Program-made: the position numbers and the translations under genes
Shown here: piece by piece, positions 1,259 to 59,142 of the stretch
Position numbering within the stretch: position 1 is the first letter of the stretch
Layout of the letters: each line of letters begins with the position of its first letter
The notes under the pieces: model-generated
Databases searched by the model: none
What the model was told of the DNA's origin: nothing
What the model saw: the letters and a program-made list of their open reading frames with translations, nothing else
From: Gemmatimonadota bacterium
GTDB lineage: Bacteria; JBHIER01; G020348925
Assembly (NCBI GenBank): GCA_020348925.1
Contig: CP070758.1
Span: forward strand, 2,929,688 to 2,993,687
Direction of reading: 5' to 3'
DNA: 64,000 nt

Positions 1259-4200
1259 CTATTTTGCCAGAAGCATCTTCTTTGAGGCAGTGAAGTCCCC
1301 GGCCTTGATCCGGTAAAAGTAGACACCTGAGCTCACCGTCTTGCCGTATTCATCCGTTCCATCCCAGCGTATGGAGTGATATCCGGGTGCCCATTCACCT
1401 TCAATCAGCCCTTTCACACGCTCGCCTGTTATGTTGAAGATGGTCAGGGAGACGTGCGAAGAGATCGGTATCGCAAACTGAATGGTTGTCTCCGGGTTGA
1501 AGGGGTTGGGATAGTTCTGGGCCAGGCTGTACCGTGTCGGTGGAGCTGACTCCGCTTTGACGAGGGCCATGAACCGGTTAAAATCACCGGGAGAGAGATA
1601 CGGTTTGAGAGACCGGCAGAACTGCATCACTTCAGGCGTGATCGCAGTCGTGGAAAGGGCAGCGGCACAATTTCCGATACCCAGGATAGCGTTCACGATC
1701 CCTAACGCGTCGAGGATGTCGACACTGCCGTCATCGTTACAGTCGGCCCTCTCGAGAGGACTTCCCGCCAATAGCGTTGTGCCTAAGATGTGATTGACGA
1801 CGGCCAAGACATCAAGGACGTCGATGTCTCCCTGGCAGTCGATATTGCCTCGTTGGACATCGGCCTGATCGGGATTGGAGAGAGCAGGACAGTTGTCCTC
1901 CTGACAGGTATTGACCGCGTACCCGGGGTCGCCGTAGCCGTCACCGTCGGTGTCGGTGCAGGAGTCGCAGACATCGCCTGAACCGTCACCGTCATCGTCG
2001 ATCTGATCCGGATTTGGCTCGTGGGGGCAGTTGTCGCAGGCATCGCCGATACCGTCCGTGTCCGTATCGTCCTGCAATGGGTTGGCATCGTAAGGACAGT
2101 TGTCCTCAACATCAAGGATTCCATCCTCGTCGGTATCAGTGGTGAGTGGACTCAGACGAATGCCCTCCCGCCATAAGACGTCCCCTAAACTCCCATGATG
2201 TTCATGCGGAGATTTGTCGTGAATTGTCTGACCGACCCCTTCATTCATTTGCCAATAGCCCACCAGACCCACCTCGGTGCCGCTCAGACAGACATTCATA
2301 TTCCCCCGGATCTCCTCTGCGGAGCGAGCGCGATTCCAGATGCGAACCTCATCGATGAGTCCGACATATGTCCAGCCGTGGTCCGGAGAGCTTCCTATGA
2401 CGACATCATCATCGCCGTTCTCTCTGATGCCGCCCGAGGGGTGCGTCGTGTGGGATACGGTCTGTTCGACACCGTTGATGTACATCCGAACAGTGCCCTG
2501 ACCATCGTACGTCGCGGCGATATACTGCCACGCGTTCAGAACAATGGATTGCTCCGGCGTATGGGAATAGCTGACAGGCCCCTCGGCATGGACCATTTGA
2601 AGGGTGAGACAGTGCCGGTTGAAGGACAGGTATGAGTTCACGAGGTAGAGTGAGACGTTCATCTTATCGACGACCCGTCCGAGTCCGAAGGTTTCGAAAA
2701 CTCCCCAGTCGTGCGGGTTGATCCAGGCCTCGATCGTGAAGGCAGCGGTGAGCTCCAGGTCCGGAGCAGCTGCACACGTGACAAAGCTATTCGGGTTGTT
2801 GAAAAGCAGTGCACTTTCACCATCGAAGACATGAACGTACTCCTCGGATACGAGCGTCAGGGTATGATTCGTGTTGGATACATCCAATTGCACGGTATAC
2901 ACTCCGGGTTCCTCGTAGGTCCAAGACGGATTGTGTGCCTCAGAATCGAATGTTCCGTCAGTCTCAAAATCCCATTGCCAGGAGACGACATTTCCCAGTG
3001 TTCGATCCGTAAAATGCACCTCCAAGGGGGCGTGGCCGGTACGCGGCTCGGCGTCGAACTGGGGAAACAGCCCGGATATCTTAAACAGCCAGACATCGAA
3101 GTGACCCGCTCCGTAAGAATCTGTATACCCGGCAACGACGTAGTCCCCGGCCGGTGTGACACACAATGCGTTGCCCCAATCGGTGCCAGTGCCGCCGACA
3201 TGTCTTGTCCACAGAACGGCCCCGTCGGGGTCCGTCTTCAGGACAACCACGTCGTTTTTGCCGGTTTCCACATATTTCGTAATACCACAGAGTATGTAAC
3301 CGCCGTCATCTGTCTGACATATTGCGTTGCCAAAATCAAAGAACGTCTCTCCCAGATAGTGTTCCCACAGATGGTTTCCATCCGAATCGGTTTTTATCAT
3401 GTACATGTCCATGGGCCAGTTGACGCTGCCGTCACCGATCAAAATATATCCGCCGTCAGCGGTTGGGCAGACGTCGTTCCCCCAATCGAACGAGAAGAAA
3501 TATTCACCGTTGTAATTTCGGGACCAGCTGACATGTCCGTCGAGATCGGTCTTGATCAGGTAAAAATCGCGATTCGAGGCGATGAGATCTTCAGAACCGG
3601 CGGAGCCGAAAAAGAGCAATCCACCGTCCGGTGTCGTGCACACCGATCGACATGTTTCCGAGCGGTCGCCACCGAAGGTTTTCGTCCAGACCGTGTCGCC
3701 GTCGGAGTCTGTTTTTATGAAATAAAAATCGTCCTCACCGGCTCCGAAGGATTCGGTATAGCCCCCGACGATGAAATGACCGTCATCCGTTTCGACGACC
3801 GATCTTCCGACATCCGCACCGGGACCGCCGAGTGTTCAGGTCCAGGAGACGTCTCCGTTTGCATCGGTCTTGACGAGATAGACGTCCTTTGATCCCGCCC
3901 CGAAGGAGGTCGTATATCCGGTCGCAATGTACCCGCCGTCGCTGGTTTGGCAGGCCGAGTACCCGTACTCCCAGCCCTCACCGCCGTACGTCTGTGACCA
4001 TTCTTCATGTCCCTCCGCATCGGTCTTTATGACATACATATCGGCGTGGCCCGCTCCGTAGGAGAACGTATATCCGCACAGAACAAAGCCTCCATCGTCC
4101 GTTCCATTTACAGACATGCCTCCTTCCGAAGAGATGCCGCCAAAAGTTCTGGCCCATACGACCTCATCCTCCTGTTGTGAGCCGGATGCGCGAATGGGAC

Positions 4201-4873
4201 CAAGGGCCGTTTTTTTCTTGCCCTGCCTGTGAGCCCGCAGATGTTGCGTGTTTTCCAGAGCAGTGGCGACGGCCTCGATGTTTTGGACATGGTAATGGAG
4301 ATCCCTGACGCTTGTGACGATGTTTCCATCAATCACAGGAGCATGATCCTGGCCCACGTATACGGCGCCGGCGGCTTCATATTCATTTAGATACATATCC
4401 CTGTCTCCCCGCCTGCCTGTGATTGTGACGCCTTCGAGTCGGTTTGCAGCGGCCAATATGCGGGGACCTGCGCATACGGTATAGACGACCAGACCGGAAT
4501 CAACGGCAGTTGCAACAAGGTTGAGTGCCTGGGAGTCGTTTATGATATCATCGTACACATTGGCTCCCAGATCGCGCCAGCTTGAGGGCATGATGGCCAG
4601 AACGTCGTACTGGGTGATGTCTGTGATATCGGAAACCAAAACATCGACCGTCATGGGCAGAGCGGGAAAACTTGCACAGGGCTGGATTGTTTGTGTGATC
4701 CCGGCATAGGTGACATGCCACCCGTGATGCTCGAGGTTATCGTTGTTCAGGAACGTATTTCCGCCGTACCGGTCGGACATCAGTGCCAAAACGTTGATGT
4801 CTTGGGCGAATATCCCGGTCGTAAAACTTAGTGCGAAAACAGCACAGACGAGAGCGGCTATTGTTGTTTTCAT
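1259..4873 (-). CDS. Secreted DJ-1/PfpI-like + propeller repeats + PKD + LamG + TSP3 + dockerin + CTD protein, interrupted by one in-frame TGA at 3836-3838
   Basis: ORFs 3836..4873 and 1259..3643 share a frame. The intervening DNA reads VSWT*TLGGPGADVGRSVVETDDGHFIVGGY, continuing the IKTDxxG-W-xxTxGG repeats. Other motifs: nucleophile elbow VCAGP, DxDxDG/DNCP repeats, paired dockerin loops and the QNYPNPFNP..KKMLLAK tail. Confidence 0.85.
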
Positions 4874-5007: not shown

Positions 5008-7938
5008 CTATTTTAAAAGAATCATCCGCTTCGTGGACGAGAATTTACCGACCGCAAGACGATAGAGGTAGATGCCACTGGCACATTCCGATCCGCTGTT
5101 ATCCTTTCCGTTCCAGTTTACCTTATACTGACCACCTTCTTTTCGATCATCCACCAGGATTCGCACCTCTTGCCCCAACAGGTTGTAAATTTTCAGGGTG
5201 GTGTGGACTGGGGAGTTCACATGCGGTATGTGGTACGTAATTTCTGTTTCCGGGTTGAAGGGATTGGGATAGTTCTGGGCTAAGGCATACTCAGCCGGTA
5301 GGGCCATCTCGTCTTCGACCAGGATCATGAATCGAGTGAAATCTTCCTTATCAAGATAGGCTTTGAGAGCCCTGCAGAATTGGATCACGTCGGTATTGAT
5401 GGTGGCATTGACCCTTTCGGGAAAACAGCCACCCGTACCCAGAATGGCGTTCACGATCCCCAAGGCGTCGAGGATGTTGACGCTGCCGTCAGTATTGCAG
5501 TCGGCCCGGCTGAGAGAACCGCCGATCAATGGGTTCGTGCCCAGGATGTGATTGACGACGGCCAGCACATCCAGGACATCGATGCCTCCCTGGCAGTCGA
5601 TGTCGCCTCTTTCGGCTTCAAACTGATCGGGATTGGGAACATGAGGGCAGTTGTCCTCCTGGCAGGTATTGAGCGCGTATCCGGGGTCGCCGTAGCCGTC
5701 ACCATCGGTGTCGGTGCACTGGTCGCAGAGGTCACCGCTTCCGTCGCCGTCTCCGTCGGTCTGATCCGAGTTGGCTTCATCCGGGCAGTTGTCACAGAAA
5801 TCCCCAACACCATCGGCGTCACCATCTTCCTGTTCCGGGTTGTAGACTTCGGGACAGTTGTCATCGATATCGTTGATCCCATCTTCGTCGTCATCCACTG
5901 ACGCCGGATGGAGGTGCACGCCTTGGATCCAGGTTGTCAGCACCGCCGTTCCGTCGTTTCCGTTTTGGGAGAGATCCGTAATTGTCTCACCGTTGCCCTC
6001 ATTCATCTGCCAGTTCCCGACCAAATGGGATTCGGACCCCTCCAGATAAGAATCCATAGTGGCCGAGATCTCCTCTCCGGTTCGAACGGCATCCCAGATC
6101 CGGACCTCATCGATGCTGCCTTCGTAGGGAAAACTCCGCCCGGCGTCATTTCCTATCACCAGATCGTTGGCGCTGTTGTCCGCGATGGGTCCTGAAGCTG
6201 AAGGTGCCTGTGAGAGGGTCTGTTCAACGCCGTTGAGATACATCCTGATGGTGCTGGTTGCGCCGTCGTACGTCACAGCGACGTGTTGCCAGGTATCGAG
6301 GAGGATGGAATTCTCCGGTGTGACGGTGAAACTGCCGCTGCCGTTGTCGTGGAAAAGTTGCAGTGCCAGACTGTGATCGTTGAAAGCCGGATGCGAGCCC
6401 ACCAGAAAGAGGGTGAATCGGCCTTTGTCAAGCACGCTTCCAAATCCGAGATTGACTAGTGGTCCCCAGCCGGCGGGATTGATCCAGGCCTCGATGGTCA
6501 GGGCCCCGGTGATATTCAAGGTGGGTGCAGCCGGACAGAGGAGAGAGCCGTTACCCCCGCCAAACTGAAGGGCACTTTCACCGTCGAAGACGCGAATGTA
6601 GCTCTCCCGGACTTGGGTGTAGGTGATGGTTCCGTCAGAGACTTTGAGGCTCACAGAGTAAATTCCCGGCTGCGTATACGTCCAGACCGGGTCATGTTCC
6701 TCGGAATCTGTGGTGCCGTCATTTTCGAAATCCCAGGCCCAGGAGGTGAGAGGCTGGAGGGCGTTTGAAAAGTTCGTGAACTGGATGGTCAGAGGCGCAT
6801 GACCGGACACTTCGTCCGTTTGAAAATAGGCACCGTACAAATTGTTCTCCCACCAGGAGATTTCGTTGCTGTAAATCGCAGCTGCCAGAACATCGGGATC
6901 CCCATCGCCGTCAAAATCGGCCACACACGGATATGTTGCACCCTGAAAGTCTTCCGAAAGATCGTGTTGAGTGAAAACCTGATCTCCGTCATTTTCCCAC
7001 CACCTGACAGTACCACCACCCTTGGCGGTTCCCAGAATATCGATATCGCCATCCAGGTCGAGATCGGCGGCATACACCCCGCGGGCTCTCAGAAAATCGA
7101 CGCCAATGACGTGGGGTGTGAAAGACTGACTCCCGTCGTTTTCGTACCACACAATTTGTCCGCCAAAACAGAGTGAGCACACCAGATCCATATGACCGTC
7201 TCGGTCAATGTCTTCGGCATACACGGCAGTCGGCCCATCCACACCGGATTGAACCACATGCTCTGTGAAGAGCCGGTCTCCGGTATTCTCGAACCATAAG
7301 ACCTGTCTTGATCCGGGACCTGTTCCTGCTATATCGATGTCACCGTCCCCATCGATATCTTTCGCATACAGACAGTTGGCTGCTGTCCAGTTTATTCTGA
7401 GGATATGCTCGGTGAAATTCTGGCCGCCGTCATTCTCGAACCAGACAGCTCTTGCAGCCTGGCATGAGGCCACAAGCACATCCATATCCTCGTCACCATC
7501 CATGTCTTCAGCCGCAACGTACGTTGGATTTTGCCAGTTGTCGGCGATGATGTGCTGTGAGAAATTCTGGGTGCCATCGTTTTCCCACCAGGCCACGGTA
7601 TCGCTTTGAAACCCCGCACCCACAACATCAATGTCTCCGTCCGAATCCAGGTCGACTCCGCAGATACCTTTCGGACCGCCAAAGCTGTTGGTGATGCTGT
7701 GTCCGATGAAGTTTTTGTTTCCGTCGTTCTCCCACCAGGCGATGCTGTTGGCCTCAAGAGCCGAACCCACTATATCGATATCCCCATCACCGTCCATATC
7801 GATGGCCACTGCATGCCATGGAGCGTTGAAGTCGTCTGTTACATTGTGTTCAGTGAAAAGAGGCTGCAAAAAGCCGGAGGTTACAAAACAGAAAAGCAAA
7901 ACAGAACATACGATCAAACTACGAAAAAGCGTTTTCAT
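5008..7938 (-). CDS. Secreted FG-GAP/VCBS repeat + PKD + LamG + TSP3 + dockerin + CTD protein
   Basis: Signal peptide, about seven DxDGDGDxD..WWENDG repeats, PKD WDFENDG, LamG TIEAWINP..IDEVRIW, DNCP repeats, dockerin and QNYPNPFNP tail. Confidence 0.92.
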   Translation of the reverse strand: MKTLFRSLIVCSVLLFCFVTSGFLQPLFTEHNVTDDFNAPWHAVAIDMDGDGDIDIVGSALEANSIAWWENDGNKNFIGHSITNSFGGPKGICGVDLDSDGDIDVVGAGFQSDTVAWWENDGTQNFSQHIIADNWQNPTYVAAEDMDGDEDMDVLVASCQAARAVWFENDGGQNFTEHILRINWTAANCLYAKDIDGDGDIDIAGTGPGSRQVLWFENTGDRLFTEHVVQSGVDGPTAVYAEDIDRDGHMDLVCSLCFGGQIVWYENDGSQSFTPHVIGVDFLRARGVYAADLDLDGDIDILGTAKGGGTVRWWENDGDQVFTQHDLSEDFQGATYPCVADFDGDGDPDVLAAAIYSNEISWWENNLYGAYFQTDEVSGHAPLTIQFTNFSNALQPLTSWAWDFENDGTTDSEEHDPVWTYTQPGIYSVSLKVSDGTITYTQVRESYIRVFDGESALQFGGGNGSLLCPAAPTLNITGALTIEAWINPAGWGPLVNLGFGSVLDKGRFTLFLVGSHPAFNDHSLALQLFHDNGSGSFTVTPENSILLDTWQHVAVTYDGATSTIRMYLNGVEQTLSQAPSASGPIADNSANDLVIGNDAGRSFPYEGSIDEVRIWDAVRTGEEISATMDSYLEGSESHLVGNWQMNEGNGETITDLSQNGNDGTAVLTTWIQGVHLHPASVDDDEDGINDIDDNCPEVYNPEQEDGDADGVGDFCDNCPDEANSDQTDGDGDGSGDLCDQCTDTDGDGYGDPGYALNTCQEDNCPHVPNPDQFEAERGDIDCQGGIDVLDVLAVVNHILGTNPLIGGSLSRADCNTDGSVNILDALGIVNAILGTGGCFPERVNATINTDVIQFCRALKAYLDKEDFTRFMILVEDEMALPAEYALAQNYPNPFNPETEITYHIPHVNSPVHTTLKIYNLLGQEVRILVDDRKEGGQYKVNWNGKDNSGSECASGIYLYRLAVGKFSSTKRMILLK

Positions 7939-7990: not shown

Positions 7991-10909
7991 CTATTTCACA
8001 AGGAGCATCTTTTTCGACTGGTTGAAACCTTGAGCCCTCAGCCTGTAAAAGTAAACACCTGAGCTCACCGTGTTGCCGTAATCATCCGTTCCATCCCAGC
8101 GTATGGAGTGATATCCGGGTGCCCGTTCACCTTCAATCAGCCCTTTCACACGCTCGCCTGTCATATTGAAGATGGCCAGGGAGACGTGTGAGGAGATCGG
8201 TATCGCAAACTGAATCGTAGTCTCTGGATTGAAGGGATTGGGATAGTTCTGGGTCAGACTGTACTGGGTCGGTAGAGCCGACTCCGCTTTGACGAGGGCC
8301 ATGAAGCGGGTAAAGTCCGCGGGAGAGAGATACGGTTTGAGGGACCGGCAGTAGTGGATCACATCGGGATCCATTCTTGGTCTGAATGCAGGGGAGCATT
8401 CACCAAGACCCAGGATGGCGTTCACGATCCCCAGGGCGTCGAGGATGTCGACACTGCCGTCGGTGTTGCAATCGGCCCGCTGTAGCGGTCCTCCGGTCAA
8501 CGGCGTCGTGCCCAGGATGTGGTTGACGACGGCTAGGACATCCAGGACATCGATACCTCCCTGGCAATCGATGTTGCCTGGCTCAACCTCGGCCTGATCC
8601 GGATTGGGGACGGACGGGCAATTGTCCTCCTGACAGGTATTGGCCGGGTATCCGGGGTCGCCGTAGCCGTCACCGTCGGTATCGGTGCAGTTGTCGCAGA
8701 CATCGCCTGAACCGTCACCGTCATCGTCGATCTGATCCGGATTTGGCTCATGGGGGCAGTTGTCGCAGACATCGCCGAGGCCGTCACCGTCCGCATCCGC
8801 CTGATCCGGATTGTGGTCATGGATACAGTTGTCGTCCACATCAAGGATTCCATCCTCGTCGGTATCGGTTGTCGCAGGATCAAGGTGCACGCCCTGAAAC
8901 CAGAGAGCATCAACGACGGTGCCGTCGTTCCCATTGCCCGACATGTCAGTCATCGTCGCACCAGTGCCTTCGTTCATCTGCCAGTAGCCGGCCAGGCCGG
9001 ATTCGTTTCCGACCAGATACCTGTCCCTGTGAGCCTGGATGTCCTCAGTCGAGCGAACCACATTCCAGAGTCGAACCTCATCGATGAGCCCTTCAAAGGT
9101 TAATCCGAGACTGACATCACTCCCGATGAAGAGATTGTCCGCCCCGTTGTCTCTCAGAATTCCTGAAGGAAGAGTGGGTTGGCTGAGCGTCTGCTCCTCG
9201 CCGTTCAAATATATTCTGACAGTGCTCGTGGCACCGTTATAGGTTGCGGCGATGTGTTGCCAGTCGTCCAGCACAATTGATTGTACCGGTGTGAGTGCAT
9301 AACTGCTTGAACCGTCATCGTGGAACAACTGGAGGATGAGGCTGTTATCATTGAAAGCCGCATGGGTGCCGACGAGATAAAGAACGCATCCACCCTTGTC
9401 GAGAATCCTGCCGAAGCCGAGATTGAATATTTCGCCCCAGCTTACGGGATGGATCCAGGCCTCGACGGTCAGGGCCTCAGTGATGTTCAGGGATGGAGCG
9501 GCCGGACAGGAGATATGGCTGTCCCGGCCGTTAAACTGGAGGGCACTCTCACCGTCAAAAACCCGAACGTAATCATCCCGGATCTGTGTATACGTGACGG
9601 ATTCATTCGACACTTCCAGTGCAACGGAATACGTTCCGGGGACCGTATACGTCCACGTCGGGTGTTGCTCCTCAGAATCGATGGACCCGTTATTTTCGAA
9701 ATCCCACAACCACGTTGTGAGAGGAGAGGAGGCGTTGGACAGATTTGTAAATTGAACCGAAAGCGGTGCATGCCCGGAGGTGACGTCCGGCTGAAATTCG
9801 GCCCCGTACAGTTTGTTCTCCCACCACGTGATCTGATTGCCGAATTGGGCCGCTCCCACAATGTCGACATCTCCGTCGGTGTCTATGTCTTCGGGATGAA
9901 GACTCGTGGCTCCGTTGAAATTGTCCGAGACGATGTGCTTTGTGAAATGCTGTGATCCGTCGTTTTCCCACCAGGCAATTTCGTCGCTATCGATGGCTGC
10001 TCCCAGAATGTCCGTGTCACCGTCATTGTCCATGTCCGCCGTCCGGACGAAGTGCGGTCTCATGAAATTTTCTCCGAGGACGTGTTGGGTGAACACCTCG
10101 TGGCCGTCGTTTTCAAACCAAGCGATCTGATTGACCTGACAGGCCGTCCCAAGCACATCGATATCGCCATCAAGGTCGACATCCGCTGCATCGACGCAGC
10201 TGGGACGCCCCCAACTACCCAAAATCGTATGTTCGGAAAAATTTTGATGACCGTCATTTTCGAACCATGAGATGTCGTTTGCGAAGGCGGCTGTGCCCAG
10301 TATATCCACATCCCCATCTGAGTCGACATCAGATGCATGAACACTATTGACGTGATCCCAATTCTGCTTCACCATATGCTCTGTGAAGTTCTGATGACCG
10401 TCGTTTTCATACCATGCTACTCTGTTGGAGCCGTCTTCGCATGCTGTTGCCAGAATATCCACGTCACCGTCTGAATCGACATCAATCGCATACACGTAAT
10501 TTGGAGAGAGCAAATTTGCGACGGCGTGTTCTGTGAAGTTTCCAAGTCCGTCGTTTTCATACCATACGATCCTATCCGCTTCCTGAAGGGTACAGACCAC
10601 ATCAACATCGTTGTCCGAATCAAGATCAATGGCATAGAGCCCCATGGCAAAAGTTGCCGCTGCTGAAATGATGTGCTCTGTAAAATGTTGGTGGCCATCG
10701 TTCTCCCACCAGGCAACGCGGCTGCCGAAACGGGTGGAGCCGAGCAGATCGGTATCGTTATCGTTATCCACATCAACGGCAAAGACACTCCAGGAATTGT
10801 ATTCTCCCGAAATTGGATGTTCTGTGAAGAAGATCTCCGCAGAGCCCAATGGAGTCAAGAGTATGATAAACGCGCAGATACCGATGGAGCACAGTACCAT
10901 GTTTTTCAC
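7991..10909 (-). CDS. Secreted FG-GAP/VCBS repeat + PKD + LamG + TSP3 + dockerin + CTD protein
   Basis: Same architecture as 5008..7938. Start moved to GTG at 10909 because it follows AAGGAGG and is followed by a signal peptide. Confidence 0.92.
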   Translation of the reverse strand: MKNMVLCSIGICAFIILLTPLGSAEIFFTEHPISGEYNSWSVFAVDVDNDNDTDLLGSTRFGSRVAWWENDGHQHFTEHIISAAATFAMGLYAIDLDSDNDVDVVCTLQEADRIVWYENDGLGNFTEHAVANLLSPNYVYAIDVDSDGDVDILATACEDGSNRVAWYENDGHQNFTEHMVKQNWDHVNSVHASDVDSDGDVDILGTAAFANDISWFENDGHQNFSEHTILGSWGRPSCVDAADVDLDGDIDVLGTACQVNQIAWFENDGHEVFTQHVLGENFMRPHFVRTADMDNDGDTDILGAAIDSDEIAWWENDGSQHFTKHIVSDNFNGATSLHPEDIDTDGDVDIVGAAQFGNQITWWENKLYGAEFQPDVTSGHAPLSVQFTNLSNASSPLTTWLWDFENNGSIDSEEQHPTWTYTVPGTYSVALEVSNESVTYTQIRDDYVRVFDGESALQFNGRDSHISCPAAPSLNITEALTVEAWIHPVSWGEIFNLGFGRILDKGGCVLYLVGTHAAFNDNSLILQLFHDDGSSSYALTPVQSIVLDDWQHIAATYNGATSTVRIYLNGEEQTLSQPTLPSGILRDNGADNLFIGSDVSLGLTFEGLIDEVRLWNVVRSTEDIQAHRDRYLVGNESGLAGYWQMNEGTGATMTDMSGNGNDGTVVDALWFQGVHLDPATTDTDEDGILDVDDNCIHDHNPDQADADGDGLGDVCDNCPHEPNPDQIDDDGDGSGDVCDNCTDTDGDGYGDPGYPANTCQEDNCPSVPNPDQAEVEPGNIDCQGGIDVLDVLAVVNHILGTTPLTGGPLQRADCNTDGSVDILDALGIVNAILGLGECSPAFRPRMDPDVIHYCRSLKPYLSPADFTRFMALVKAESALPTQYSLTQNYPNPFNPETTIQFAIPISSHVSLAIFNMTGERVKGLIEGERAPGYHSIRWDGTDDYGNTVSSGVYFYRLRAQGFNQSKKMLLVK

Positions 10910-11416
10910 GATATCCCTCCTTTGGTGAATGATTGAAAGTATGGACACTTTATACCACTCGGTCACGCTTTTCAGCCGGTTGCATCTGAGACACACATTT
11001 TTTTGTCAATGTTTCACGTCGCCCTGTTTCATTTCCTCTGCGTCTCCGTATCTAGTCTTTCGTTCAATTTCTGTGGAGCCCACGTGCGTTGCCTCTGTCT
11101 TTCGCAAAATACGTACCGACAAAGGATGTTACGTGTTCCCCAGGAGTTCTGTTTCGAAAGCATTGTGCCCCGGAGAGATTTTAGGGGCTGCTCACATATC
11201 TCGGTATCTGTCACGTCGGGTAAAGATGCAGGCGATTGCACGCTAAGGGGATGAAATCTGCAGCTCTTGGATGTTCATATTGGTCCCGGCATATGAGATG
11301 GATCATAGCTTTGTTGTTCGTCTTGCTTGCGGAAGTCTCAGTTCAATATACCCGGAGTCATGAAAGAGTTTCCGGCACCCGAAAAACGTGAAATCGAAGA
11401 TCTCAACGATTATGTG

Positions 11417-42579: not shown

Positions 42580-42806
42580 ATGTTCGAAGGAAGCGAGCGT
42601 ATGCTGATCCAGACATATATAAAAAGGAAAGCCGAGCCGATGGATAGGCCCCGATCACCTGATGAGACGTTGATCGGATATCGGTCCTCTCCAGTATCGG
42701 GTTTCTGTTCCTCCCGGCTTTTCACGAACAATTCGGCCGCGGCGGCAAGCATTGTGCACTCGGGAGCCTGTTGAGCAGCGAAAATTACGGGGAGGTGAGT
42801 CATCCT

Positions 42807-43718: not shown

Positions 43719-44132
43719 ACTCCTATCGAATGTACCTGAATGTGCATGGATGTGCAAAACAGAAAGGAGGGATGGGTACGATAACGGTCCTATGCATGGA
43801 AATCATGTGTAGAGTAGGGATGATCTCTTTCGGACGTTCCTCGAATTTCCGAAAGGGAGAGAGATGTTTGAGGTTCCGAAGGAATTCGGGGCTTCATATG
43901 GTAACGGCGAAGCGATCCGGTCGAGTGGAGGATCGCCAAGCGCCGGAGAATCGGTTTTCAGAGAGAACGGTTGAAAAATGGACTGAAAAACACCCGCAGG
44001 CGAGTAGCCGGGTTATGACAAAACGATATGCTAACCTACCTACTTGTCCTACCAAATGTTCCGCATTTTCCGCTATTGTTCCCTCTTTGGCGAAAGCCTG
44101 CGGTGTTTTTCAAACCTGAGGAGGTAAACGGC

Positions 44133-48075: not shown

Positions 48076-48885
48076 ATGTTTCAGAAGTTTCCTCCCTTCG
48101 ATGTGATGAACAGAGTTTTCGTTGTTGCCGTTGGTCTGCTGTTGACCTTCCCAGTCCTTCTGGGCGCAGTCGGATCCGGAGACAGGGCGGTCGTGGAGCT
48201 TTCTTCGAGCGAGGTACGAACCGATCTGTCCGTGAGGACAGTTCAGGTTCCGGTGGCTGTCTCGAACACGAAGGTTATGGCGGGCGTCCAGCTCTCTGTG
48301 AAGTTCGATACCGAAGGCATGGTTCCCGGGGAACCGGAGTTGACGGCTCGCAGTGCAAGCATGTCGATCGCCTCCAATTCGAAAGACGGCGAGATGGTTG
48401 TTCTGCTGTACAGCACCGATGGAAAAGGTATTTCCCCCGGTGACGGACCGATCGTGTCGCTCTCTTTCGCCATCATGGATGGGATGGATGCAACAGGCGC
48501 GATCCGATTGGAGAAGGTCATCTTGGCCAGCCCGGAGGCCACAGCTCTTCCTGCTGTCGTCAGGCCAACGACGATATCCGTTGGGTCGCGGACGCCCACC
48601 CGTTATGACTTGACCCAGAACTATCCCAATCCCTTCAATCCGACAACCAGTATTCGGTATGCGGTGGTCGGTGATCAGTCCCCCCCGCACGTTACCCTGA
48701 AGATCTATACCGTGCTCGGGCAGGAGGTGCAGACGCTGGTGGATGAGCCGCAGAAATCGGGGTACTACACGATCGATTGGGATGGGCGAGACCAATACGG
48801 CGCACAGGTAGCGAGCGGTATCTACTTCTGCCGGCTCCGGGCCGGAGACTATGCGGCCACCATCAGGATGGTCCTGATGAAATAA
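48076..48885 (+). CDS. Single cohesin-like domain + CTD protein
   Basis: Signal peptide; cohesin-like VQVPVAVSN..AGVQLSVKFD..GDGPIVSLSF..IRLEKV; QNYPNPFNP..RMVLMK tail. Confidence 0.78.
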   Translation: MFQKFPPFDVMNRVFVVAVGLLLTFPVLLGAVGSGDRAVVELSSSEVRTDLSVRTVQVPVAVSNTKVMAGVQLSVKFDTEGMVPGEPELTARSASMSIASNSKDGEMVVLLYSTDGKGISPGDGPIVSLSFAIMDGMDATGAIRLEKVILASPEATALPAVVRPTTISVGSRTPTRYDLTQNYPNPFNPTTSIRYAVVGDQSPPHVTLKIYTVLGQEVQTLVDEPQKSGYYTIDWDGRDQYGAQVASGIYFCRLRAGDYAATIRMVLMK

Positions 48886-49368: not shown

Positions 49369-52300
49369 GTGCGCACCATGACGAGACCGAGTTGGTTTTT
49401 TGCAGGGCTTCTCATTGTGATTCTCGGCCTGTTCTGTGTGAACAGGATACCGGCCCAGGACATGATTGCCGATATTACCGAAGATGTGGAGACCGAGTTC
49501 GGGACATATCATCCATTTCTTGTGGAGATCGAGCCCGCCGCTGAGCCGTATACGGTCGAGCCCGATTTCAGCAATGTGGTCAATTTCTCGGACTTCGGCT
49601 TCACTGCTGTCGAAGAGAGTCTTCTGTCGGCCCACTATTTTGTCGTCTCGCCGACTCGGCATGACGGGGGGTCTGGCTACAAGGAGATATACGATATCTA
49701 TAATGAATGCAGGGAGCAGGACGTGCCCATATTTGTCACCACGGACGCCATGCTCCATACCTTTCATCTGCTCTTCGACAGGATCCTCAAGACCATTGAA
49801 ACGAAGCGCCTGTTCGTTGATCTCCAGGGGCTCCTCGGGGCGCTCTTCTTTGAGACGTTGAACCAGTACGGGGCTGCCCAGGATGCCTCCGTTCGAGCCG
49901 CCCTTGAACGGAACATCGATTATCTCATCGTCGCCGCCTCGCTGCTTGATTCGACATACGATGCGGGGAGCTACGGGATCGTGTATCAGGATGAACTCGA
50001 CCTTATCGCCCAGCATGCAGGTTTTGAAACTTCGCCCATTTTCATGTACGATGAGGATTACAGTCAGTATATCCCGCGGGGTCATTATACCGACAGCGAT
50101 TCGCTCCGGCACTATTTCCTGTCCATGATGTGGCTCGGGCGCATGACCTTTGATGCCGAGGCGCCGGAACCGACGCGCAGCGCCGTTCTCCTGGTCCAGG
50201 CTCTGGACAAGGCGGCCGCGAATATTATTCCGGCGTTGGCGCTCTGGGAGCGCATCTACCTGCCCACGGTCTTCTTCGTGGGCAAATCCGACGATATCAA
50301 TTTTTATCAGTACAAAGAGTTGGCCGTGCAGGTCTATGGTTCGGATTTTGCCAACCTGGTGCCGGACGATTTTGCGGATGAGGCCAAGCTCGAAGCGTTT
50401 CTCGAACTCGCCGAGGATCTCCCCGAGCCCGGCATTACGTACCCCGGTCAGCCCAGCAAGGGTTACCGTCTCATGGGCCAGCGCTTCATTCCGGACTCCT
50501 ACGTTTTGGATCACATGGTCATGCCCTACACCGGACGAATGATGCCCAAAGGTCTCGATGTCATGTCGGTCTTAGGATCGGCCCGGGCCTGGCAGATTCT
50601 GGACGAGGTCTACCACGATCTTGCTGCGGATCAGTTGATGAATTTGAAAGCCGAGTTCGAGGCCTATCCGGATTCGGTCTGGGCTCAGAACGTCTACTGG
50701 AACTGGCTCTACTCATTGATGCCGCTCCTGTTTGAGAAAGGGCAGGGTTTTCCGCCGTTTATGCAGAACCAGGCCTGGACGGACAAGGAGTTAAACGACG
50801 CGCTCGGTTCGTGGGCCGAGCTGCGGCACGATACGATTTTATATGCCAAGCAAGGCGGCTGGGAGAGCGTTCCCCCATACTCCGGTTTGGTGCAGGGCTA
50901 TGTGGAACCCAATCCGTACTTTTACGCCCGCTTGGCCTCCCTCGACGATCTCATGATCACCGGCCTGGAGGATCAGGGGCTGCTTTTTCCACGTTTTGAA
51001 CCGAGTCTCACCTCGCTCAAGGAGTTGTTGCTGACACTGAAGACCATCTCTGAAAAGGAGCTGACCAATCAGTCTCTGACGTTTGACGAGTACGAAGTCA
51101 TCTGCAATATCGGCGAGACCATTGAGACAATTGTTGAATTCGAGACGTGGACGGAAGGCCCCGGCCCGAACAACGAGGAGATGCCGGTCATCGCCGACGT
51201 CCATACGGATCCTCTGAGTGGCACCTGTCTGGAGGAGGGTGTTGGCTATCCGATGAATATCTACGTCATCTGCGATGTCGAGGGGGAGCTGCGGCTGACG
51301 CGAGGCGCGGTGTTTTCGTACTACGAGTTCGAGTGGCCGCTCAACGATCGTCTCACGGACGAGAAGTGGATTGAACTGCTTCAAGGCGAAGATCCCCCTG
51401 CACCGCCCATCTGGACCGCCAGTTTTCTGGACTATTCGACGAACTGGGGCAACCCAGATCCTCGTTTCTATTACTGGCAAAAGCAGGGATTGGTCGGCGT
51501 TGTGGCGACGGTTGAAGGCGAGGAATTTACCGTCGGTGATATGGTGAGTATCCGAATTCGCTCCTCAAGTCCCTTCGCTGAGAGCCCGGCGGTTGCAATT
51601 TTCCCGAGTACGGGGGATCCCTTCAGCCTGACGGATATTCAATCGGAGGGTGACGATTTTCTTGCGTATCTCAATACGTCCGGGATGAGTCCCGGCGAAG
51701 TCGGAGTTTATGTGACAGCGGAGGTGGGGCAATACGAAACGACGACAATCTCCTATCGAACGAAGTTTTTGCTTCATCCGGGGGTAGACATCAAGGGTGA
51801 TGTGAGTGGTGACGGGCAGATCGATATTCAGGACGTCGTATTGACGGTCAACATCGTCCTCAATACACTGGAGCCCACTCCGGAGCAATTCTGGGCGGCC
51901 GATTGGAACGATGACGAGGGGATCGATATCTTGGACGTGGTCGGTTTGATACGATTCATTCTCGGTATTGGGGACAGGACCTTTGTGGATTTTGAAGATG
52001 TCGAAGACTACGGGAACTTTTGTGTTATCCCAAAGGGAACTGCCGTAATAACCTCGGATTCGGAGTGGACGAACCTGTGGGAGCTCTACTGGAACGTAAC
52101 CGACGGCTATGGGAACAAGACACCGCCCGCGGAAATCGATTTTGATGAGGCGATGGTCATCGGGGTGTTCTGGGGTGGCGGATGCATCTATTCCGGCTGC
52201 ACAAATCGGAGCCCGTCAATCGGGTCGGTCTGGATTGCGAGCGATACCCTGCGGGTCAGCGTGGGCGAGATGGAGGATCTCGGGCCGTGTGACGCGTGCG

Positions 52301-52371
52301 TCTGTCCGCTGCATTTAATAAAAACTCAGAAATTGAATCTGCCGATACAATTCACGGGAGAAGTGCCATGA
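49369..52371 (+). CDS. DUF3160 protein + Ig-like + dockerin + PrcB-C-like domain
   Basis: DUF3160 motifs RGHY, GQRF, ELRHDTILYAKQ, ADVHTD and SYYEF; dockerin KGDVSGDG; C-terminal IDFDEAMVIGVFWG..SGC. Confidence 0.85.
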   Translation: MRTMTRPSWFFAGLLIVILGLFCVNRIPAQDMIADITEDVETEFGTYHPFLVEIEPAAEPYTVEPDFSNVVNFSDFGFTAVEESLLSAHYFVVSPTRHDGGSGYKEIYDIYNECREQDVPIFVTTDAMLHTFHLLFDRILKTIETKRLFVDLQGLLGALFFETLNQYGAAQDASVRAALERNIDYLIVAASLLDSTYDAGSYGIVYQDELDLIAQHAGFETSPIFMYDEDYSQYIPRGHYTDSDSLRHYFLSMMWLGRMTFDAEAPEPTRSAVLLVQALDKAAANIIPALALWERIYLPTVFFVGKSDDINFYQYKELAVQVYGSDFANLVPDDFADEAKLEAFLELAEDLPEPGITYPGQPSKGYRLMGQRFIPDSYVLDHMVMPYTGRMMPKGLDVMSVLGSARAWQILDEVYHDLAADQLMNLKAEFEAYPDSVWAQNVYWNWLYSLMPLLFEKGQGFPPFMQNQAWTDKELNDALGSWAELRHDTILYAKQGGWESVPPYSGLVQGYVEPNPYFYARLASLDDLMITGLEDQGLLFPRFEPSLTSLKELLLTLKTISEKELTNQSLTFDEYEVICNIGETIETIVEFETWTEGPGPNNEEMPVIADVHTDPLSGTCLEEGVGYPMNIYVICDVEGELRLTRGAVFSYYEFEWPLNDRLTDEKWIELLQGEDPPAPPIWTASFLDYSTNWGNPDPRFYYWQKQGLVGVVATVEGEEFTVGDMVSIRIRSSSPFAESPAVAIFPSTGDPFSLTDIQSEGDDFLAYLNTSGMSPGEVGVYVTAEVGQYETTTISYRTKFLLHPGVDIKGDVSGDGQIDIQDVVLTVNIVLNTLEPTPEQFWAADWNDDEGIDILDVVGLIRFILGIGDRTFVDFEDVEDYGNFCVIPKGTAVITSDSEWTNLWELYWNVTDGYGNKTPPAEIDFDEAMVIGVFWGGGCIYSGCTNRSPSIGSVWIASDTLRVSVGEMEDLGPCDACVCPLHLIKTQKLNLPIQFTGEVP

Positions 52372-52386
52372 AAAAAATTTCCCTGT

Positions 52387-52464: not shown

Positions 52465-52501
52465 CCAGGCAGGATTGTTTCTTTTCTAAAGGAGGAGACA
52501 G

Positions 52502-53323: not shown

Positions 53324-53365
53324 GATGACCCGCCATTCAAAGAATTCAAAAGGAGGTCTATCATA

Positions 53366-55849
53366 ATGGTTCTCTTGAGAAGGATTCATCATAATGCGAC
53401 GTGCGTTGTCGTAATCGGCTTCGTCTTTTGCTCGACTGTTCTGGGCCAAGGGATGATTGCCGACATTACCCTGGATGTGGCGACCGAATTCGGCACGTAT
53501 CGTCCTTACCTCGCTGATTTCTCGCCCAATGCACCTGAATACACCGTTGAGCCGGATTTGAGCAACGTCGTGAACTACTCAGATGTGGCGTGGAGGCTGG
53601 GTGCGGCTGATTCGATATTTCTCCTGCAAAACCACTTCACGGTGAAAAAGAGCCAGTACAAACAACTGTACGACATATATAATGAATCCACCTGGAATGC
53701 TACGCCTATCTTTGTAACGACTGATGCCGTTCTTCATATCTATCATGTTCTTTACGACGGTCTCCTGTCCAAGATCGAAGTTCAGAAGTTTGTCGAGACG
53801 CTGGCCCTTTTAACCGAAACTCTTATCGATTCTACTGCTTCCCTGCACAGTCAATCGAAAAAACCTGAAACCCGGGAGGCACTGCTTCATAATCTGGCAT
53901 TCCTGAGCGTGGGTAAAAAACTTTTGAAAGGGGCTGATGCGTCCGTTCCGGAGATCGTGTCGGCCTTCGTGGATTCCGAACTTGTTCTCATCTCCGACCA
54001 TGACGGCTTCCATTGCTCACCCGTTCTGGGTCCTTTCTCGGAGTTGGATTACAGTCAGTTTCAACCGAGGGGACACTACACAAGGAACGATACGCTCGAA
54101 GCCTATTTTCAGACGATGATGTGGTACGGCTGGACGATCTTTACCATGGAGCCCGAACTGTTCGGAGAATTGGCATCACGCCATACATTACAGGCGCTGC
54201 TTCTGGTTCAGATGCTTTATGCGCTTGAATCGAATGGTTCGACTCAGGTGGAATTGTGGGGGAGCATCTACGAATCCACCGTCTTTTTTGTGGGCAAGAC
54301 CGACGATCCGAATGTCCGGGATTACAGGAATATTGCTGACATGATTTATGGGTCTGACTTTCTCAGCCTCCCTCCGGACAGTCTGGCCGATGCCTCCCTT
54401 CTGGAATCCTTCATGACCGAGGCCCAAAAGCTGCCGGAACCGGCCATCCCAAACTGGATCTACGGGACGTTTCTTACGTATAAGGGTTTTCGTTTCATGG
54501 GACAGCGGTTTATCCCCGACTCCTATATGTTCGCCCGTCTTGTGCTGCCTGAGGTCGAAGGCCGTCTTTTCCCAAAGGGGTTGGACGTTATGGCCATTTT
54601 GGGGTCGGAGAGAGCTTACACGCTCCTGGATTCTTTATACGAAGAGACATCCTATCCCAATTATTCCCCAAGAATGACTGAGTTCAAAACTGAGTTTTCG
54701 AACAAACCGCCTGAGGAATGGGCTCAGAATCTGTATTGGAACTGGCTCTACTGTCTTATGCCGCTGCTTTACACAAAGGGAGCGGGCTATCCTTTCTTTA
54801 TGCGGACCCTGGCATGGGCGGACAAAGAGCTCTTGACCGCCTTGGCCTCCTGGGCCGAGCTACGACACGATACGATTCTCTATGCCAAGCAGAGTATGAG
54901 CCCGTGCGGTATTCCCCCGGGACCTCCGAAAAGTTATGTGGAACCAAACCCCCATCTGTACGCTCGGTTGGCCAGCCTTGTCCGGTACACTCGCGAGGGC
55001 CTTCATTCCAGAGATTTGCTTTTGGAAGAATTTCGTGAGAAGCTCGAGCTGTTTGAAACACTGCTCCTCTTCTTGAGGGATATTTCCATCAAAGAGCTGG
55101 AAAATATTCCTCTCTCCGCAACTGAGTATGAAAACATCTTTTGTTTTGGCCGGCTTCTGGAGTTTCTCGTCTCCGATAGTCAGGATCCGCAACACCTCTG
55201 GGACGCAAATACGGAGGATATGGCTGTCGTTGCCGATGTCCACACGGATTCCAACACGGATCAATGTCTGGAGGAGGGGGTTGGTTATCCGCTCGAGATT
55301 TTTGTCATTGTTCATGAGGGCGGGATAACCCGAATCACTCAGGGTGCTATCTTTTCCTACTACGAATTTCCCCAACCCATCGCCGAGCGATTGACCGACG
55401 AAACCTGGCGGGAGATGCTGACCGGAGATGCCCCGCCCCCAATGCCAGAATGGGTTTCCAGTTTTATGGACGTGGAGGCGTCTCAGCCGGCTTTTGCTCA
55501 GCAGTCCCCGGACAATCTTTATCATCACGAATTCACCTCCGTGGGAACAGACGAAATCCATGCGATTCCAGGAGAGATCCGGCTCGTGCAAAATTACCCG
55601 AACCCGTTCAATTCAGAGACGATGATTCGCTTTGACCTCGTCGGTGATTCCCATGTCAAGCTCGTCATTTACAATATCCTTGGTCAAAAAATACGAGTGC
55701 TTTGGAATGAGCAATGTATTTCTGGGACTCATACCGTCAGATGGGACGGTAGAGACTCTTCGGGTCAGACCCTGCCCAGTGGAGTGTACTTGGTCAGAGT
55801 AGAGGCGGAAGCATACGTCCAAACGAACAGGATGGTGCTTCTGAAATAG
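53366..55849 (+). CDS. DUF3160 protein + CTD
   Basis: Same DUF3160 motifs; QNYPNPFNS..RMVLLK tail; no dockerin. Confidence 0.87.
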   Translation: MVLLRRIHHNATCVVVIGFVFCSTVLGQGMIADITLDVATEFGTYRPYLADFSPNAPEYTVEPDLSNVVNYSDVAWRLGAADSIFLLQNHFTVKKSQYKQLYDIYNESTWNATPIFVTTDAVLHIYHVLYDGLLSKIEVQKFVETLALLTETLIDSTASLHSQSKKPETREALLHNLAFLSVGKKLLKGADASVPEIVSAFVDSELVLISDHDGFHCSPVLGPFSELDYSQFQPRGHYTRNDTLEAYFQTMMWYGWTIFTMEPELFGELASRHTLQALLLVQMLYALESNGSTQVELWGSIYESTVFFVGKTDDPNVRDYRNIADMIYGSDFLSLPPDSLADASLLESFMTEAQKLPEPAIPNWIYGTFLTYKGFRFMGQRFIPDSYMFARLVLPEVEGRLFPKGLDVMAILGSERAYTLLDSLYEETSYPNYSPRMTEFKTEFSNKPPEEWAQNLYWNWLYCLMPLLYTKGAGYPFFMRTLAWADKELLTALASWAELRHDTILYAKQSMSPCGIPPGPPKSYVEPNPHLYARLASLVRYTREGLHSRDLLLEEFREKLELFETLLLFLRDISIKELENIPLSATEYENIFCFGRLLEFLVSDSQDPQHLWDANTEDMAVVADVHTDSNTDQCLEEGVGYPLEIFVIVHEGGITRITQGAIFSYYEFPQPIAERLTDETWREMLTGDAPPPMPEWVSSFMDVEASQPAFAQQSPDNLYHHEFTSVGTDEIHAIPGEIRLVQNYPNPFNSETMIRFDLVGDSHVKLVIYNILGQKIRVLWNEQCISGTHTVRWDGRDSSGQTLPSGVYLVRVEAEAYVQTNRMVLLK

Positions 55850-58513: not shown

Positions 58514-59142
58514 GAGAGAAGATAATGCTGCTTGCTGTTATTCTTATTTCCGTTGCCTTTCCCGTTCGTTTTGCCCACAGTCAACTTTCGGGTAATATTG
58601 AAACTGGGTTTACCTATTTCAAGGTCGGAATTCACGAGCAGCCGTCCGTACCCGTATATGAATATACCGTAGCGACCAATGACAGCGAGGTGATAGCCCA
58701 GTGTCTGGAGCAATTGTCGTTGCCCGAGGATCTGCGCGATCTCCATATCAACGGTGCTATCGACTGGGGTGACGGAGGCTTCAATACATCCTGGAGCTGG
58801 CATATTGTTCCTGACGACTGGCATCTGGCCGGAATGTCGGCTGAGGTGTGTGACGGCTCTCCGCAATTTGTCGAGGAAAATCTTGAGTACTGGATCAACG
58901 CGGTTGGTCGTTATTGTTGCTATGACAGTTACATCAAAGGCCAAGTGAAGATTGGTGATGTCAATGGGGACGGTGCCATAGATATCCTGGACGTGATGTT
59001 TGTGGTGAACATCATCCTCGAACTGACACAGCCCACACCCGACCAGATCTGGGCGGCGGATTCCAACAATGACGGCGTCGTCGACATTTTCGATATTTTT
59101 GGGATAGTTGAAATAATCTTGGGCAATGATGGGTTGCAATGA
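58510..59142 (+). CDS. BP74-N-like domain + dockerin secreted protein
   Basis: HINGAI..FNTSWSWH..AEVCDG.P.FVE motif; dockerin GDVNGDG; 4-nt overlap with the upstream stop. Confidence 0.7.
   Translation: MREKIMLLAVILISVAFPVRFAHSQLSGNIETGFTYFKVGIHEQPSVPVYEYTVATNDSEVIAQCLEQLSLPEDLRDLHINGAIDWGDGGFNTSWSWHIVPDDWHLAGMSAEVCDGSPQFVEENLEYWINAVGRYCCYDSYIKGQVKIGDVNGDGAIDILDVMFVVNIILELTQPTPDQIWAADSNNDGVVDIFDIFGIVEIILGNDGLQ

Follow-up and report, generated by a model that had tools for sequence, protein, structure and literature searches.

Cohesin proteins with a type IX-type C-terminal domain as candidate surface anchors for a large, non-cellulolytic dockerin repertoire in a Gemmatimonadota genome

We analysed a 64,000-nucleotide stretch of the genome of a Gemmatimonadota bacterium (contig CP070758.1), referred to below as the window. 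A short gene at 48076-48885 encodes a cohesin domain followed by a C-terminal domain (CTD) of the type used by type IX secretion systems (T9SS), and nine other genes of the window encode proteins with dockerin domains. Nearly all cohesin-dockerin systems described so far, to our knowledge, come from Gram-positive bacteria that degrade cellulose. An earlier note made from the letters of the window (the original prediction) took the product of the short gene for an adaptor that captures dockerin-only cargo and displays or co-exports it. We examined the window, the genome from which it comes (5.04 Mb, 49.7% GC, 96.3% complete) and the sister genome G001, the only other species genome of the same phylum in a set of 199,900; the remaining 29 relatives in the genome comparison belong to the same domain only.

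The cohesin-CTD gene and the dockerin genes of the window

The product of 48076-48885 had been described as a signal peptide, a cohesin and a CTD with nothing else, and Pfam bore this out. The Cohesin family (PF00963) matched residues 55-141 with 25.2 bits against a cut-off of 24.1, and FlgD_ig matched the tail with 39.4 bits (cut-off 27), ending at the last residue; the N-terminus carries a hydrophobic, signal-like segment. Por_Secre_tail (PF18962) reached 20.8 bits, under its cut-off of 27. Hidden Markov models (HMMs) of our own, described below, gave 81.6 bits for the cohesin and 126.2 bits for the CTD. When a profile of 27 homologs (alignment A1) was compared with the PDB, its top matches were cohesins (2xdh_A, E 2.5e-6; 4uyp_A, E 1.1e-5), and its tail part matched FlgD and the C-terminus of PorU. 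By sequence, the domain is a cohesin. Homologs of the protein bear the NCBI name "T9SS type A sorting domain-containing protein", and three metagenomic ones (P0002, P0006 and P0010) also pair Cohesin with a CTD. A search of metagenome contigs for the cohesin domain gave pattern matches in 598 stretches and confirmed none of them. The ESM Atlas holds a model of the exact protein, with a predicted local distance difference test (pLDDT) value of 0.76. Structural neighbours of residues 25-180 (template modelling score 0.75-0.79), which are leads only, lie in clusters carrying Cohesin and Por_Secre_tail, and in two rows the aligned part reaches the bar for the name Cohesin; some of the clusters are labelled Latescibacterota or Fidelibacterota.

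The original prediction had also listed nine dockerin proteins, three with a CTD (1259, 5008 and 7991) and six without, and Pfam agreed with this list: Dockerin_1 (PF00404) scored above its gathering cut-off of 22.9 bits in all nine genes, and both calcium-loop/helix repeats are visible in the aligned dockerins (Table 1). These nine lie in a span of 58 kb, where about 3.3 would be expected from the genome average (289 in 5.04 Mb). Three CTD genes can be added to the list (39144-41507, 44028-47867 and 53366-55849). Por_Secre_tail scored 27.0 bits in 44028-47867, exactly at the cut-off, and 27.3 bits, above it, in 1259-3643. As for the predicted cargo, FG-GAP, DUF3160, BP74_N and PKD domains were recovered, while DJ-1 belongs to the 1259 gene only if a TGA is read through, and the beta-helix expected in 28853-30334 did not appear, as Pfam gave the dockerin alone and no beta-helix family at E ≤ 0.01. 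The DUF3160 genes 49369, 53366 and 55904 form one paralog family, two of whose members carry a dockerin and one a CTD.

Table 1. Features of the window and, in the last row, secretion loci elsewhere in the genome (genome coordinates). Bit scores are from Pfam unless marked otherwise; aa, amino acids.
Position	Strand	Feature	Basis or remark
1259..4873	-	Signal peptide, DJ-1, repeats, PKD, LamG, TSP3, dockerin, 56-aa helical module, CTD; in-frame TGA at 3836-3838	Pfam
5008..7938	-	FG-GAP, PKD, LamG, dockerin (Cys type), helical module, CTD	Pfam and own HMMs
7991..10996	-	FG-GAP, PKD, LamG, TSP3, dockerin (Cys type), helical module, CTD	Pfam and own HMMs
1427-1594, 5176-5343, 8159-8326	-	Helical module between dockerin and CTD of the three preceding genes (approximate)	Spacing
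19708..20802	+	Signal peptide, in-frame TGA at 19954-19956, two PKD, C-terminal dockerin (open reading frame 19960-20802)	Pfam on 19960-20802
28853..30334	+	Secreted protein, unassigned fold, C-terminal dockerin	Dockerin_1 28.6 bits
39144..41507	+	787-aa protein, CTD seen by own HMM alone (54.3 bits)	No Pfam family at E ≤ 0.001
41628-41727	.	Assembly gap, 100 N	Splits the finding in two
41848..42579	+	Small conserved protein, first block gene past the gap	No Pfam family; 45% identity to G001 counterpart
42771..43718	+	Cys-rich, internally duplicated protein, lipobox-like N-terminus	No Pfam family; 53% identical G001 ortholog, same order
44028..47867	+	1279-aa protein, nine CarboxypepD_reg repeats and CTD; next upstream of the cohesin-CTD gene	Pfam; 61% identical G001 ortholog, same position
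48076..48885	+	Putative minimal cohesin adaptor, 269 aa: signal-like N-terminus, cohesin ~48223-48540, T9SS-type CTD ~48622-48882	Pfam and own HMMs; 53% identical G001 ortholog
49369..52371	+	DUF3160 (611.7 bits), dockerin (non-Cys), 135-aa tail without assigned domain, no CTD	Dockerin_1 29.0 bits
52502..53323	+	Small secreted protein with terminal dockerin	Dockerin_1 33.6 bits; N-terminus
53366..55849	+	DUF3160 (636.1 bits), CTD in place of dockerin	FlgD_ig 36.2, Por_Secre_tail 27.9 bits
55904..58513	+	DUF3160 (640.1 bits), C-terminal dockerin	Dockerin_1 35.5 bits
58510..59142	+	BP74_N (87.4 bits), C-terminal dockerin	Dockerin_1 42.9 bits
60765-60864	.	Assembly gap, 100 N	N run in window
3287811-3292174, 4277832-4283474, 3826185-3831505, 4466355-4470764		SprA, PorU/PorV-like, type IV pilus operons	Genome coordinates (G000)

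Two of the dockerin genes contain an in-frame TGA. The DJ-1 part (3836-4873) has a signal peptide of its own and lies in the same frame as 1259-3643, with a single TGA between them; the repeat pattern runs on across this codon, which falls where sister repeats have K or R. At 19708 the start with the signal peptide is likewise cut off from the open reading frame (ORF) for PKD and dockerin by one TGA. Recoding of TGA was considered for both and rejected. TGA ends 6 of the 19 window genes, and the genome shows no excess of TGA between long frames in the same phase; because TGA is a normal stop here and no such excess exists, the two codons look like marks of pseudogenes or assembly errors.

Interspersed with the dockerin genes are an OPT oligopeptide transporter, a DUF6125 gene, an M29-like peptidase and two TonB-dependent receptors, both with CarboxypepD_reg at the N-terminus (12475-17061, 25706-28642 and 36443-39085), a set consistent with peptide uptake and a peptide-based lifestyle. 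Long antisense ORFs of 396-707 amino acids lie on the minus strand opposite the CarboxypepD_reg and DUF3160 genes (45255-47378, 56876-58243 and 49324-50514); in all likelihood they shadow the sense genes and do not code for proteins. The third piece of the window, past the second N run, holds a DDE transposase-like ORF with weak IS66/IS240 matches (62753-63931).

The genome record consists of 206 pieces and 205 joins, each of 100 N, and near-identical DNA is present in contigs of public runs labelled sediment metagenome (X1 to X4); no RNA run containing it was listed. At the gap that divides the finding, none of the listed contigs of these four runs lies on both sides. To its right the contig starts 659 bases inside its own record, and the last 126 bases to its left (41502-41627) have a contig depth of 81, compared with about 11 for the flanks, and go on into other sequence; they are a multi-copy element at a contig end. 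Since no contig bridges the gap, the linkage of the two halves is unconfirmed, a point that the original prediction had itself raised, and the window is two unlinked pieces of genome. Within the right-hand half, a single 4642-base contig of run X1 spans 43999-48640 and an 877-base contig in runs X1 and X2 spans 48615-49491. From a second study (X3 and X4) come short contigs that match several parts of 41502-52061 with 0-5 differences, and parts of 51100-53500 have little or no contig cover in the four runs.

The public-run contigs break at 48615-48649, in a stretch of repeated DNA coding for the beginning of the CTD (depth 155, compared with about 12), and overlap at 48615-48640 by only 26 bases. 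It could therefore be argued that the fusion of cohesin and CTD, or the adjacency to the DUF3160 genes, is a mis-join at this repeat. We hold this to be highly improbable, as the sister genome has an ortholog of the same signal-cohesin-CTD architecture (Cohesin, 30.9 bits) on a contig of its own, the three metagenomic homologs named above combine the same two domains, and the 877-base contig covers 48615-49491 in two runs, although these belong to one study that is possibly the source of this DNA.

In the sister genome the ortholog stands in the same surroundings. A contig (C47, locus L089, 3745-10262) carries counterparts of the four genes at 41848-48885, at the identities listed in Table 1 and with ten CarboxypepD_reg repeats in the third protein. 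The four-gene block is thus kept across two genera, and its genes may act as a single unit. Upstream of the block, the sister genome encodes a CHASE2 sigma-54 activator. Downstream of the cohesin-CTD gene, at a distance of 105 bp, the sister genome has a dockerin-only gene with an arylsulfotransferase-like propeller and not DUF3160. As the block upstream is kept and the cargo downstream differs, the conserved partners of 48076 are its upstream genes. Still, the recurrence of a dockerin-only gene downstream of the cohesin-CTD gene in two related genomes is suggestive, and speaks for a link between 48076 and its neighbours even with other cargo. The intergenic sequence between 48885 and 49369 has no terminator-like site, which is uninformative.

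The original prediction had also pointed to the position of 48076 directly in front of the DUF3160 cluster. A role of 48076 as an adaptor dedicated to this cluster was not upheld, since there is no clear enrichment of such adjacency, no locus-specific dockerin type, and conservation lies upstream. Across the genome, 6 of the 76 genes with cohesin and CTD lie within 500 bp of a dockerin-only gene, against a random mean of 2.9, and 11 of 200 random draws reach 6; within 5 kb the figures are 14 of 76 and 12.2. Dockerin-only genes do cluster with one another (78 of 175 within 500 bp of another, random mean 7.4) and with CTD-only genes (20 of 126, random 5.3). A dockerin type specific to the DUF3160 cluster was considered and rejected, as the closest relatives of its four dockerins (55-67% identity) are scattered over the genome. 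The downstream dockerin of the sister genome, too, resembles the dockerin of 49369 (42% identity) no more closely than the other window dockerins (28-45%).

Repertoire, terminal cassettes and cargo across the genome

The genome-wide HMM search that the original prediction had proposed was carried out with our own models. These were seeded from the dockerins and CTDs of the window and from 53 of the 73 cohesin matches above the Pfam cut-off (≥100 amino acids), and were iterated over all stop-to-stop frames of at least 50 amino acids in the six-frame translation. They reported 294 dockerins in 289 frames, 169 cohesins in 102 frames, and 263 frames with a CTD. By combination, 175 frames have a dockerin only, 61 a dockerin and a CTD, 40 a cohesin and a CTD, 36 all three modules (e.g., L068, L069, L070 and L072), 17 a cohesin and a dockerin, 9 a cohesin only and 126 a CTD only; together these 464 frames take up 21.6% of the genome bases. 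Pfam gave 96 Cohesin matches in the whole genome, 73 of them above the cut-off, and at least 153 Dockerin_1 matches, with 150 of 527 candidates scored. In a check of our calls against Pfam, a dockerin was found at E ≤ 1e-5 in 29 of 40 random dockerin-only frames, and the eleven misses comprised eight full-length, two-repeat dockerins (at least 47 bits with our HMM) and three fragments; a cohesin was found at E ≤ 0.001 in 14 of 20 hand-picked cohesin frames. A CTD is present on 76 of the 102 cohesin frames, and since the frames with cohesins above the Pfam cut-off alone give 40 of 50, a share of about 75-80% is robust even if the totals are not. Two to six cohesins occur in 42 of the 102 frames, and Pfam itself finds four to five cohesin stretches in L076 and L078. 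The sister genome has 56 cohesin and 88 dockerin matches, so that both genomes of the phylum share the expansion.

The secreted proteins end in a few address cassettes: a dockerin; dockerin, module and CTD; dockerin, cohesin and CTD; one or more cohesins and a CTD; or a CTD. The CTD ends within 3 amino acids of the C-terminus in 259 of 263 frames, and 142 of the 175 dockerin-only frames end within 20 amino acids after the dockerin. In 60 of the 61 frames with dockerin and CTD the two are 55-60 amino acids apart, and the interval is taken up by a conserved helix-like module of about 45 amino acids with an F-M-A-L-V-K-like motif, to which Pfam assigns no family. The same cassette recurs in the metagenomic homologs P0008, P0011, P0021, P0039 and P0044. 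Possible roles of the module are masking or stabilising the dockerin, or marking the region where PorU cleaves. Dockerins of a Cys-bearing type occur in 58 of 60 frames with the dockerin-module-CTD cassette, and the four dockerins of the DUF3160 cluster are of the non-Cys type.

Cohesins are placed with similar regularity. The last cohesin lies within 40 amino acids of the CTD in 51 of 76 frames, and in frames with dockerin, cohesin and CTD the first two are separated by 8-28 amino acids, most often by 15. This CTD-proximal subfamily includes the cohesin of 48076, for which 23 of the 24 best non-self BLAST matches are CTD-proximal cohesins, mostly in dockerin-cohesin-CTD proteins, and 48076 can therefore be regarded as a free-standing form of the common terminal cassette. 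It is one of seven small monovalent cohesin-CTD frames found with our HMMs and represents the cohesin-CTD cassette in its smallest form.

This geometry also invites an explanation in which CTD-proximal cohesins link proteins with both dockerin and cohesin into chains or sheets, 48076 being a chain end or a nucleation point. Dockerin-cohesin-CTD proteins could then polymerise head to tail into a surface lattice, and the 36 frames that combine the three modules, their tight spacing and the subfamily of the 48076 cohesin all agree with such an arrangement. As an account of the whole system we consider it unlikely, because the dockerin and the cohesin of one protein may not be cognate, the short linker would equally permit binding within one molecule, and the 175 cargo-like dockerin-only enzymes are left unaccounted for.

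To characterize the cargo, 40 frames were drawn at random from the 169 dockerin-only frames outside the window. They included eight peptidases, four of family M28, two of M14 and two gingipain-like ones of C25, as well as FG-GAP/LamG/PKD proteins, several beta-propellers, a beta-helix, a metallophosphatase, a metallo-beta-lactamase fold, a cupredoxin and Fib_succ_major. There was no glycoside hydrolase among these 40 or among the nine dockerin proteins of the window, in keeping with the earlier claim that the cargo does not consist of cellulases. Twenty hand-picked cohesin proteins from the 102 frames carry HYDIN/DUF1573/ASH Ig-like domains and no carbohydrate-binding module (CBM). The mixture of dockerin and CTD members seen in the DUF3160 family is not confined to it; several other paralog families mix dockerin, dockerin-plus-CTD and CTD members. 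This suggests that cargo of one and the same kind can be addressed by either a dockerin or a CTD.

We also modelled residues 25-180 of 48076, the cohesin, in complex with the dockerin of 58510-59142 and two calcium ions. The complex scored 0.32, compared with 0.01 for the best of three controls, which lends weak support to pairing. The runs agreed in 100% of contacts, with a pLDDT of at least 83 for the partner and 72-74 for the cohesin chain. In the calibration, 116 of 157 solved complexes and 2 of 215 mismatched pairs passed; passes at a score of 0.60 or less came from only 18 of the 157 solved complexes and included both mismatched pairs. Our job used alignments of our own and calcium ions riding along, unlike the calibration set-up. 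As cohesin-dockerin complexes have already been solved, a pass denotes likeness to them and not binding.

Might the two module families not pair at all? The dockerin-like EF-hand duplications would then be calcium-dependent modules for stabilising or ligand binding and the cohesin-like beta-sandwiches spacers, and their co-occurrence with CTDs would follow from a large secretome. Peer and colleagues are reported to have described in 2009 cohesin- and dockerin-like modules outside cellulosomes for which no partner is proven, and the low cohesin scores and the weak complex score go in the same direction. We nevertheless find this very unlikely, since each of the two genomes of the phylum shows a joint expansion of the families, the modules are fused in cassettes of regular build and fixed spacing, and the dockerins retain both calcium-loop/helix repeats.

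Proposed export and surface attachment

The original prediction depended on T9SS machinery in this genome, and here the outcome was divided: genes for SprA, PorU and a PorV-like protein were found, and GldK, GldL, GldM and GldN were not. SprA (TIGR04189) scored 568.4 and 135 bits in one frame of 2000 amino acids (cut-off 200), and PorU 738.3 bits against a cut-off of 420. A PorV-like gene that scored 190.3 bits starts 120 bp downstream of PorU. Sixteen matches to the PorV model occur genome-wide, most of them to its N-terminal half and in frames of 310-390 amino acids, which suggests a family of PorV/FadL-like outer-membrane paralogs. GldK, GldL, GldM and GldN make up the inner-membrane motor and ring of the T9SS of Bacteroidota. 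The best match to GldK reached 94.9 bits against a cut-off of 350. Because these four were not detected and divergent homologs are possible, we call the system T9SS-like.

Taken together, a cohesin recognised by sequence, a terminal CTD, genes for SprA, PorU and a PorV-like protein, a CTD on 76 of 102 cohesin frames and non-cellulolytic cargo make surface adaptors the most economical reading: cohesin proteins exported by their CTD are probably surface anchors for dockerin proteins. While the domain architectures, their numbers, the genes for SprA, PorU and the PorV-like protein and the conservation in the sister genome were observed directly, CTD-driven export, surface retention and cohesin-dockerin binding are inferred. 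Sec would take all cassette proteins into the periplasm, and the CTD proteins, most cohesin proteins among them, would leave it by way of the SprA translocon in the outer membrane, together with PorV. PorU would cut off the CTD and the proteins would stay at the cell surface, where their cohesins would bind the calcium-dependent dockerins of proteins such as peptidases, DUF3160 proteins and binding proteins with FG-GAP/LamG/PKD domains. The outcome would be a non-cellulolytic surface network, mainly proteolytic and adhesive, in which 48076 would act as a minimal monovalent anchor. The original prediction thus keeps its idea of cohesin-CTD proteins as a surface capture device for dockerin proteins, whereas a dedication of 48076 to the DUF3160 genes is not supported.

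Several observations weigh against these surface anchors. On the side of the modules, the Cohesin match of 48076 exceeds the Pfam cut-off by just 1.1 bits and its Por_Secre_tail match falls short, and the larger counts from our HMMs may overcall, as 6 of the 20 hand-picked cohesin frames lacked a Pfam cohesin at E ≤ 0.001. On the side of the machinery, the PorV-like protein remains under the curated cut-off of 250 bits, and there was no match to GldM (TIGR03517, PF12081), GldL or GldN, a weak negative, as three of the models had no control match in any genome. No type II secretion system (T2SS) was found either; the sole secretin locus and the GspE-like ATPase belong to type IV pilus operons. 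Finally, the 175 dockerin-only proteins are left without an export route, 142 of them ending too soon after the dockerin to hide a tail, and as both partners fold in one periplasm, the delay of their assembly until after export is unexplained.

The assignment to pili rests on gene context. The GspD model found one secretin locus, PilQ-like according to NCBIfam, which follows a PilM gene and forms part of a pilM-Q operon. The ATPase resembling GspE proved to be PilB (740 bits, above the cut-off) and adjoins PilT and PilC. Since the secretin is PilQ-like and the ATPase is PilB, we conclude that a type IV pilus is present and that a T2SS was not found. A lipobox-like motif was seen in 3 of 141 signal-like dockerin-only N-termini with a crude heuristic, which is permissive (137 of 300 random long frames were signal-like) and was used for this count alone.

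Both difficulties of the surface-anchor reading, the export route and premature assembly in the periplasm, would be covered if dockerin-only proteins docked on cohesin-CTD proteins in the periplasm and crossed the SprA translocon with them as folded complexes, so that the cohesin proteins would be carriers as well as anchors. That no T2SS was found makes this co-export the more interesting. The large number of dockerin-only frames, most without room for a hidden tail, the rarity of lipobox-like N-termini and the presence of cohesin and dockerin partners in one periplasm would all agree with it, as would the dockerin-only gene that follows the cohesin-CTD gene in two genera. The cargo folds should be able to pass the translocon, as the same folds also carry a CTD (e.g., DUF3160 in 53366-55849), and according to the available part of one account (PMC9251779) T9SS moves folded proteins through the 36-strand barrel of SprA. 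However, titles and the opening lines of abstracts, together with that same part of PMC9251779, yielded no published protein that hitchhikes on T9SS, and the genome shows no clear enrichment of genes with cohesin and CTD next to those with a dockerin only. Export could also take other routes, such as vesicles, lysis, the pilus secretin or a system not yet recognised, and a T2SS could be missing from an assembly that is 96.3% complete and in 206 pieces. Co-export of dockerin-only cargo through T9SS is speculative, and we give it a low probability.

Relation to known systems

The closest known case is Ca. Stygibacter (Cloacimonadota), for which a cellulosome-like complex was proposed in silico (Williams et al., 2021; PMC8542988). 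As described in the available part of that paper, it too is an uncultured diderm with a cohesin-bearing, scaffoldin-like protein that has a T9SS CTD for surface attachment, and with signal-peptide enzymes that have C-terminal dockerins, S8 and C25 peptidases included. It has a single scaffoldin of 3,755 amino acids with CBM2/CBM3 and few dockerin enzymes, among them GH18 and GH57 (PMC8542988), whereas here there are 102 cohesin frames (50 by the Pfam cut-off), about 289 dockerin frames, no glycoside hydrolase in the 40 sampled and nine window dockerin proteins, and many proteins with dockerin and CTD, with dockerin, cohesin and CTD, or with one cohesin and a CTD only. The export route of dockerin-only proteins is not raised in the available part of that account. 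As the same logic was proposed for Ca. Stygibacter, the kind of system is known, and what is new is its scale, cassettes, cargo and lineage.

Clostridial cellulosomes share with the present system duplicated calcium-binding dockerins, cohesin beta-sandwiches, multi-cohesin scaffoldins (here with up to six cohesins) and dual-module proteins, in a repertoire of similar or larger size. They differ in that the host here is diderm, with proposed anchoring by a T9SS-type CTD in place of SLH modules or sortase, and in that the cargo consists of peptidases and of binding and propeller domains, with no cellulases and with no CBM in the 20 cohesin proteins scanned. Of the features that define a cellulosome, a scaffoldin with several cohesins is present, and dockerin-bearing glycoside hydrolases and a scaffoldin CBM were not found in our samples. 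The archaeal cohesin 2xdh, the closest solved relative in sequence, is similar in being a single cohesin in a non-cellulolytic organism; we take it to lack a CTD, a diderm envelope and a large repertoire of partners.

Compared with the T9SS of Bacteroidota, the extreme C-terminal CTD, SprA and PorU above their cut-offs, the PorU-PorV gene pair and gingipain-like C25 peptidases are shared. Here GldK, GldL, GldM and GldN were not detected, the CTD is matched with higher scores by FlgD_ig than by Por_Secre_tail, and both C25 peptidases of the 40-frame sample end in a dockerin and not in a CTD. For co-export, an analogy is offered by Tat "hitchhiker" export, in which a signal-less partner leaves with a signal-bearing one, and by the export of folded oligomers through T2SS (available part of PMC9251779), although another membrane and another machine are involved. 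An Omnitrophota giant-gene preprint was considered as a related case and set aside, as its available part concerns other proteins. Our literature search found no papers joining Latescibacteria with cohesins or dockerins, or Zixibacteria with type IX secretion.

The genome is that of a diderm and holds one of the largest known sets of cohesins and dockerins, which are borne by peptidases and binding proteins and combined with a T9SS-type tail. For secretion biology it raises the question of how about 175 proteins with a Sec signal and a dockerin pass the outer membrane when no T2SS was detected. For surface display in Gram-negative bacteria, a parts list is provided by the small candidate anchors with one cohesin and a CTD, together with the cassettes dockerin-module-CTD and dockerin-cohesin-CTD. 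If co-export were true, the cohesin-dockerin pair would be a transferable secretion signal acting in trans for a T9SS-like system, in a lineage without a detectable T2SS. The system is also a first functional handle on a phylum-level lineage known from two species genomes in 199,900.

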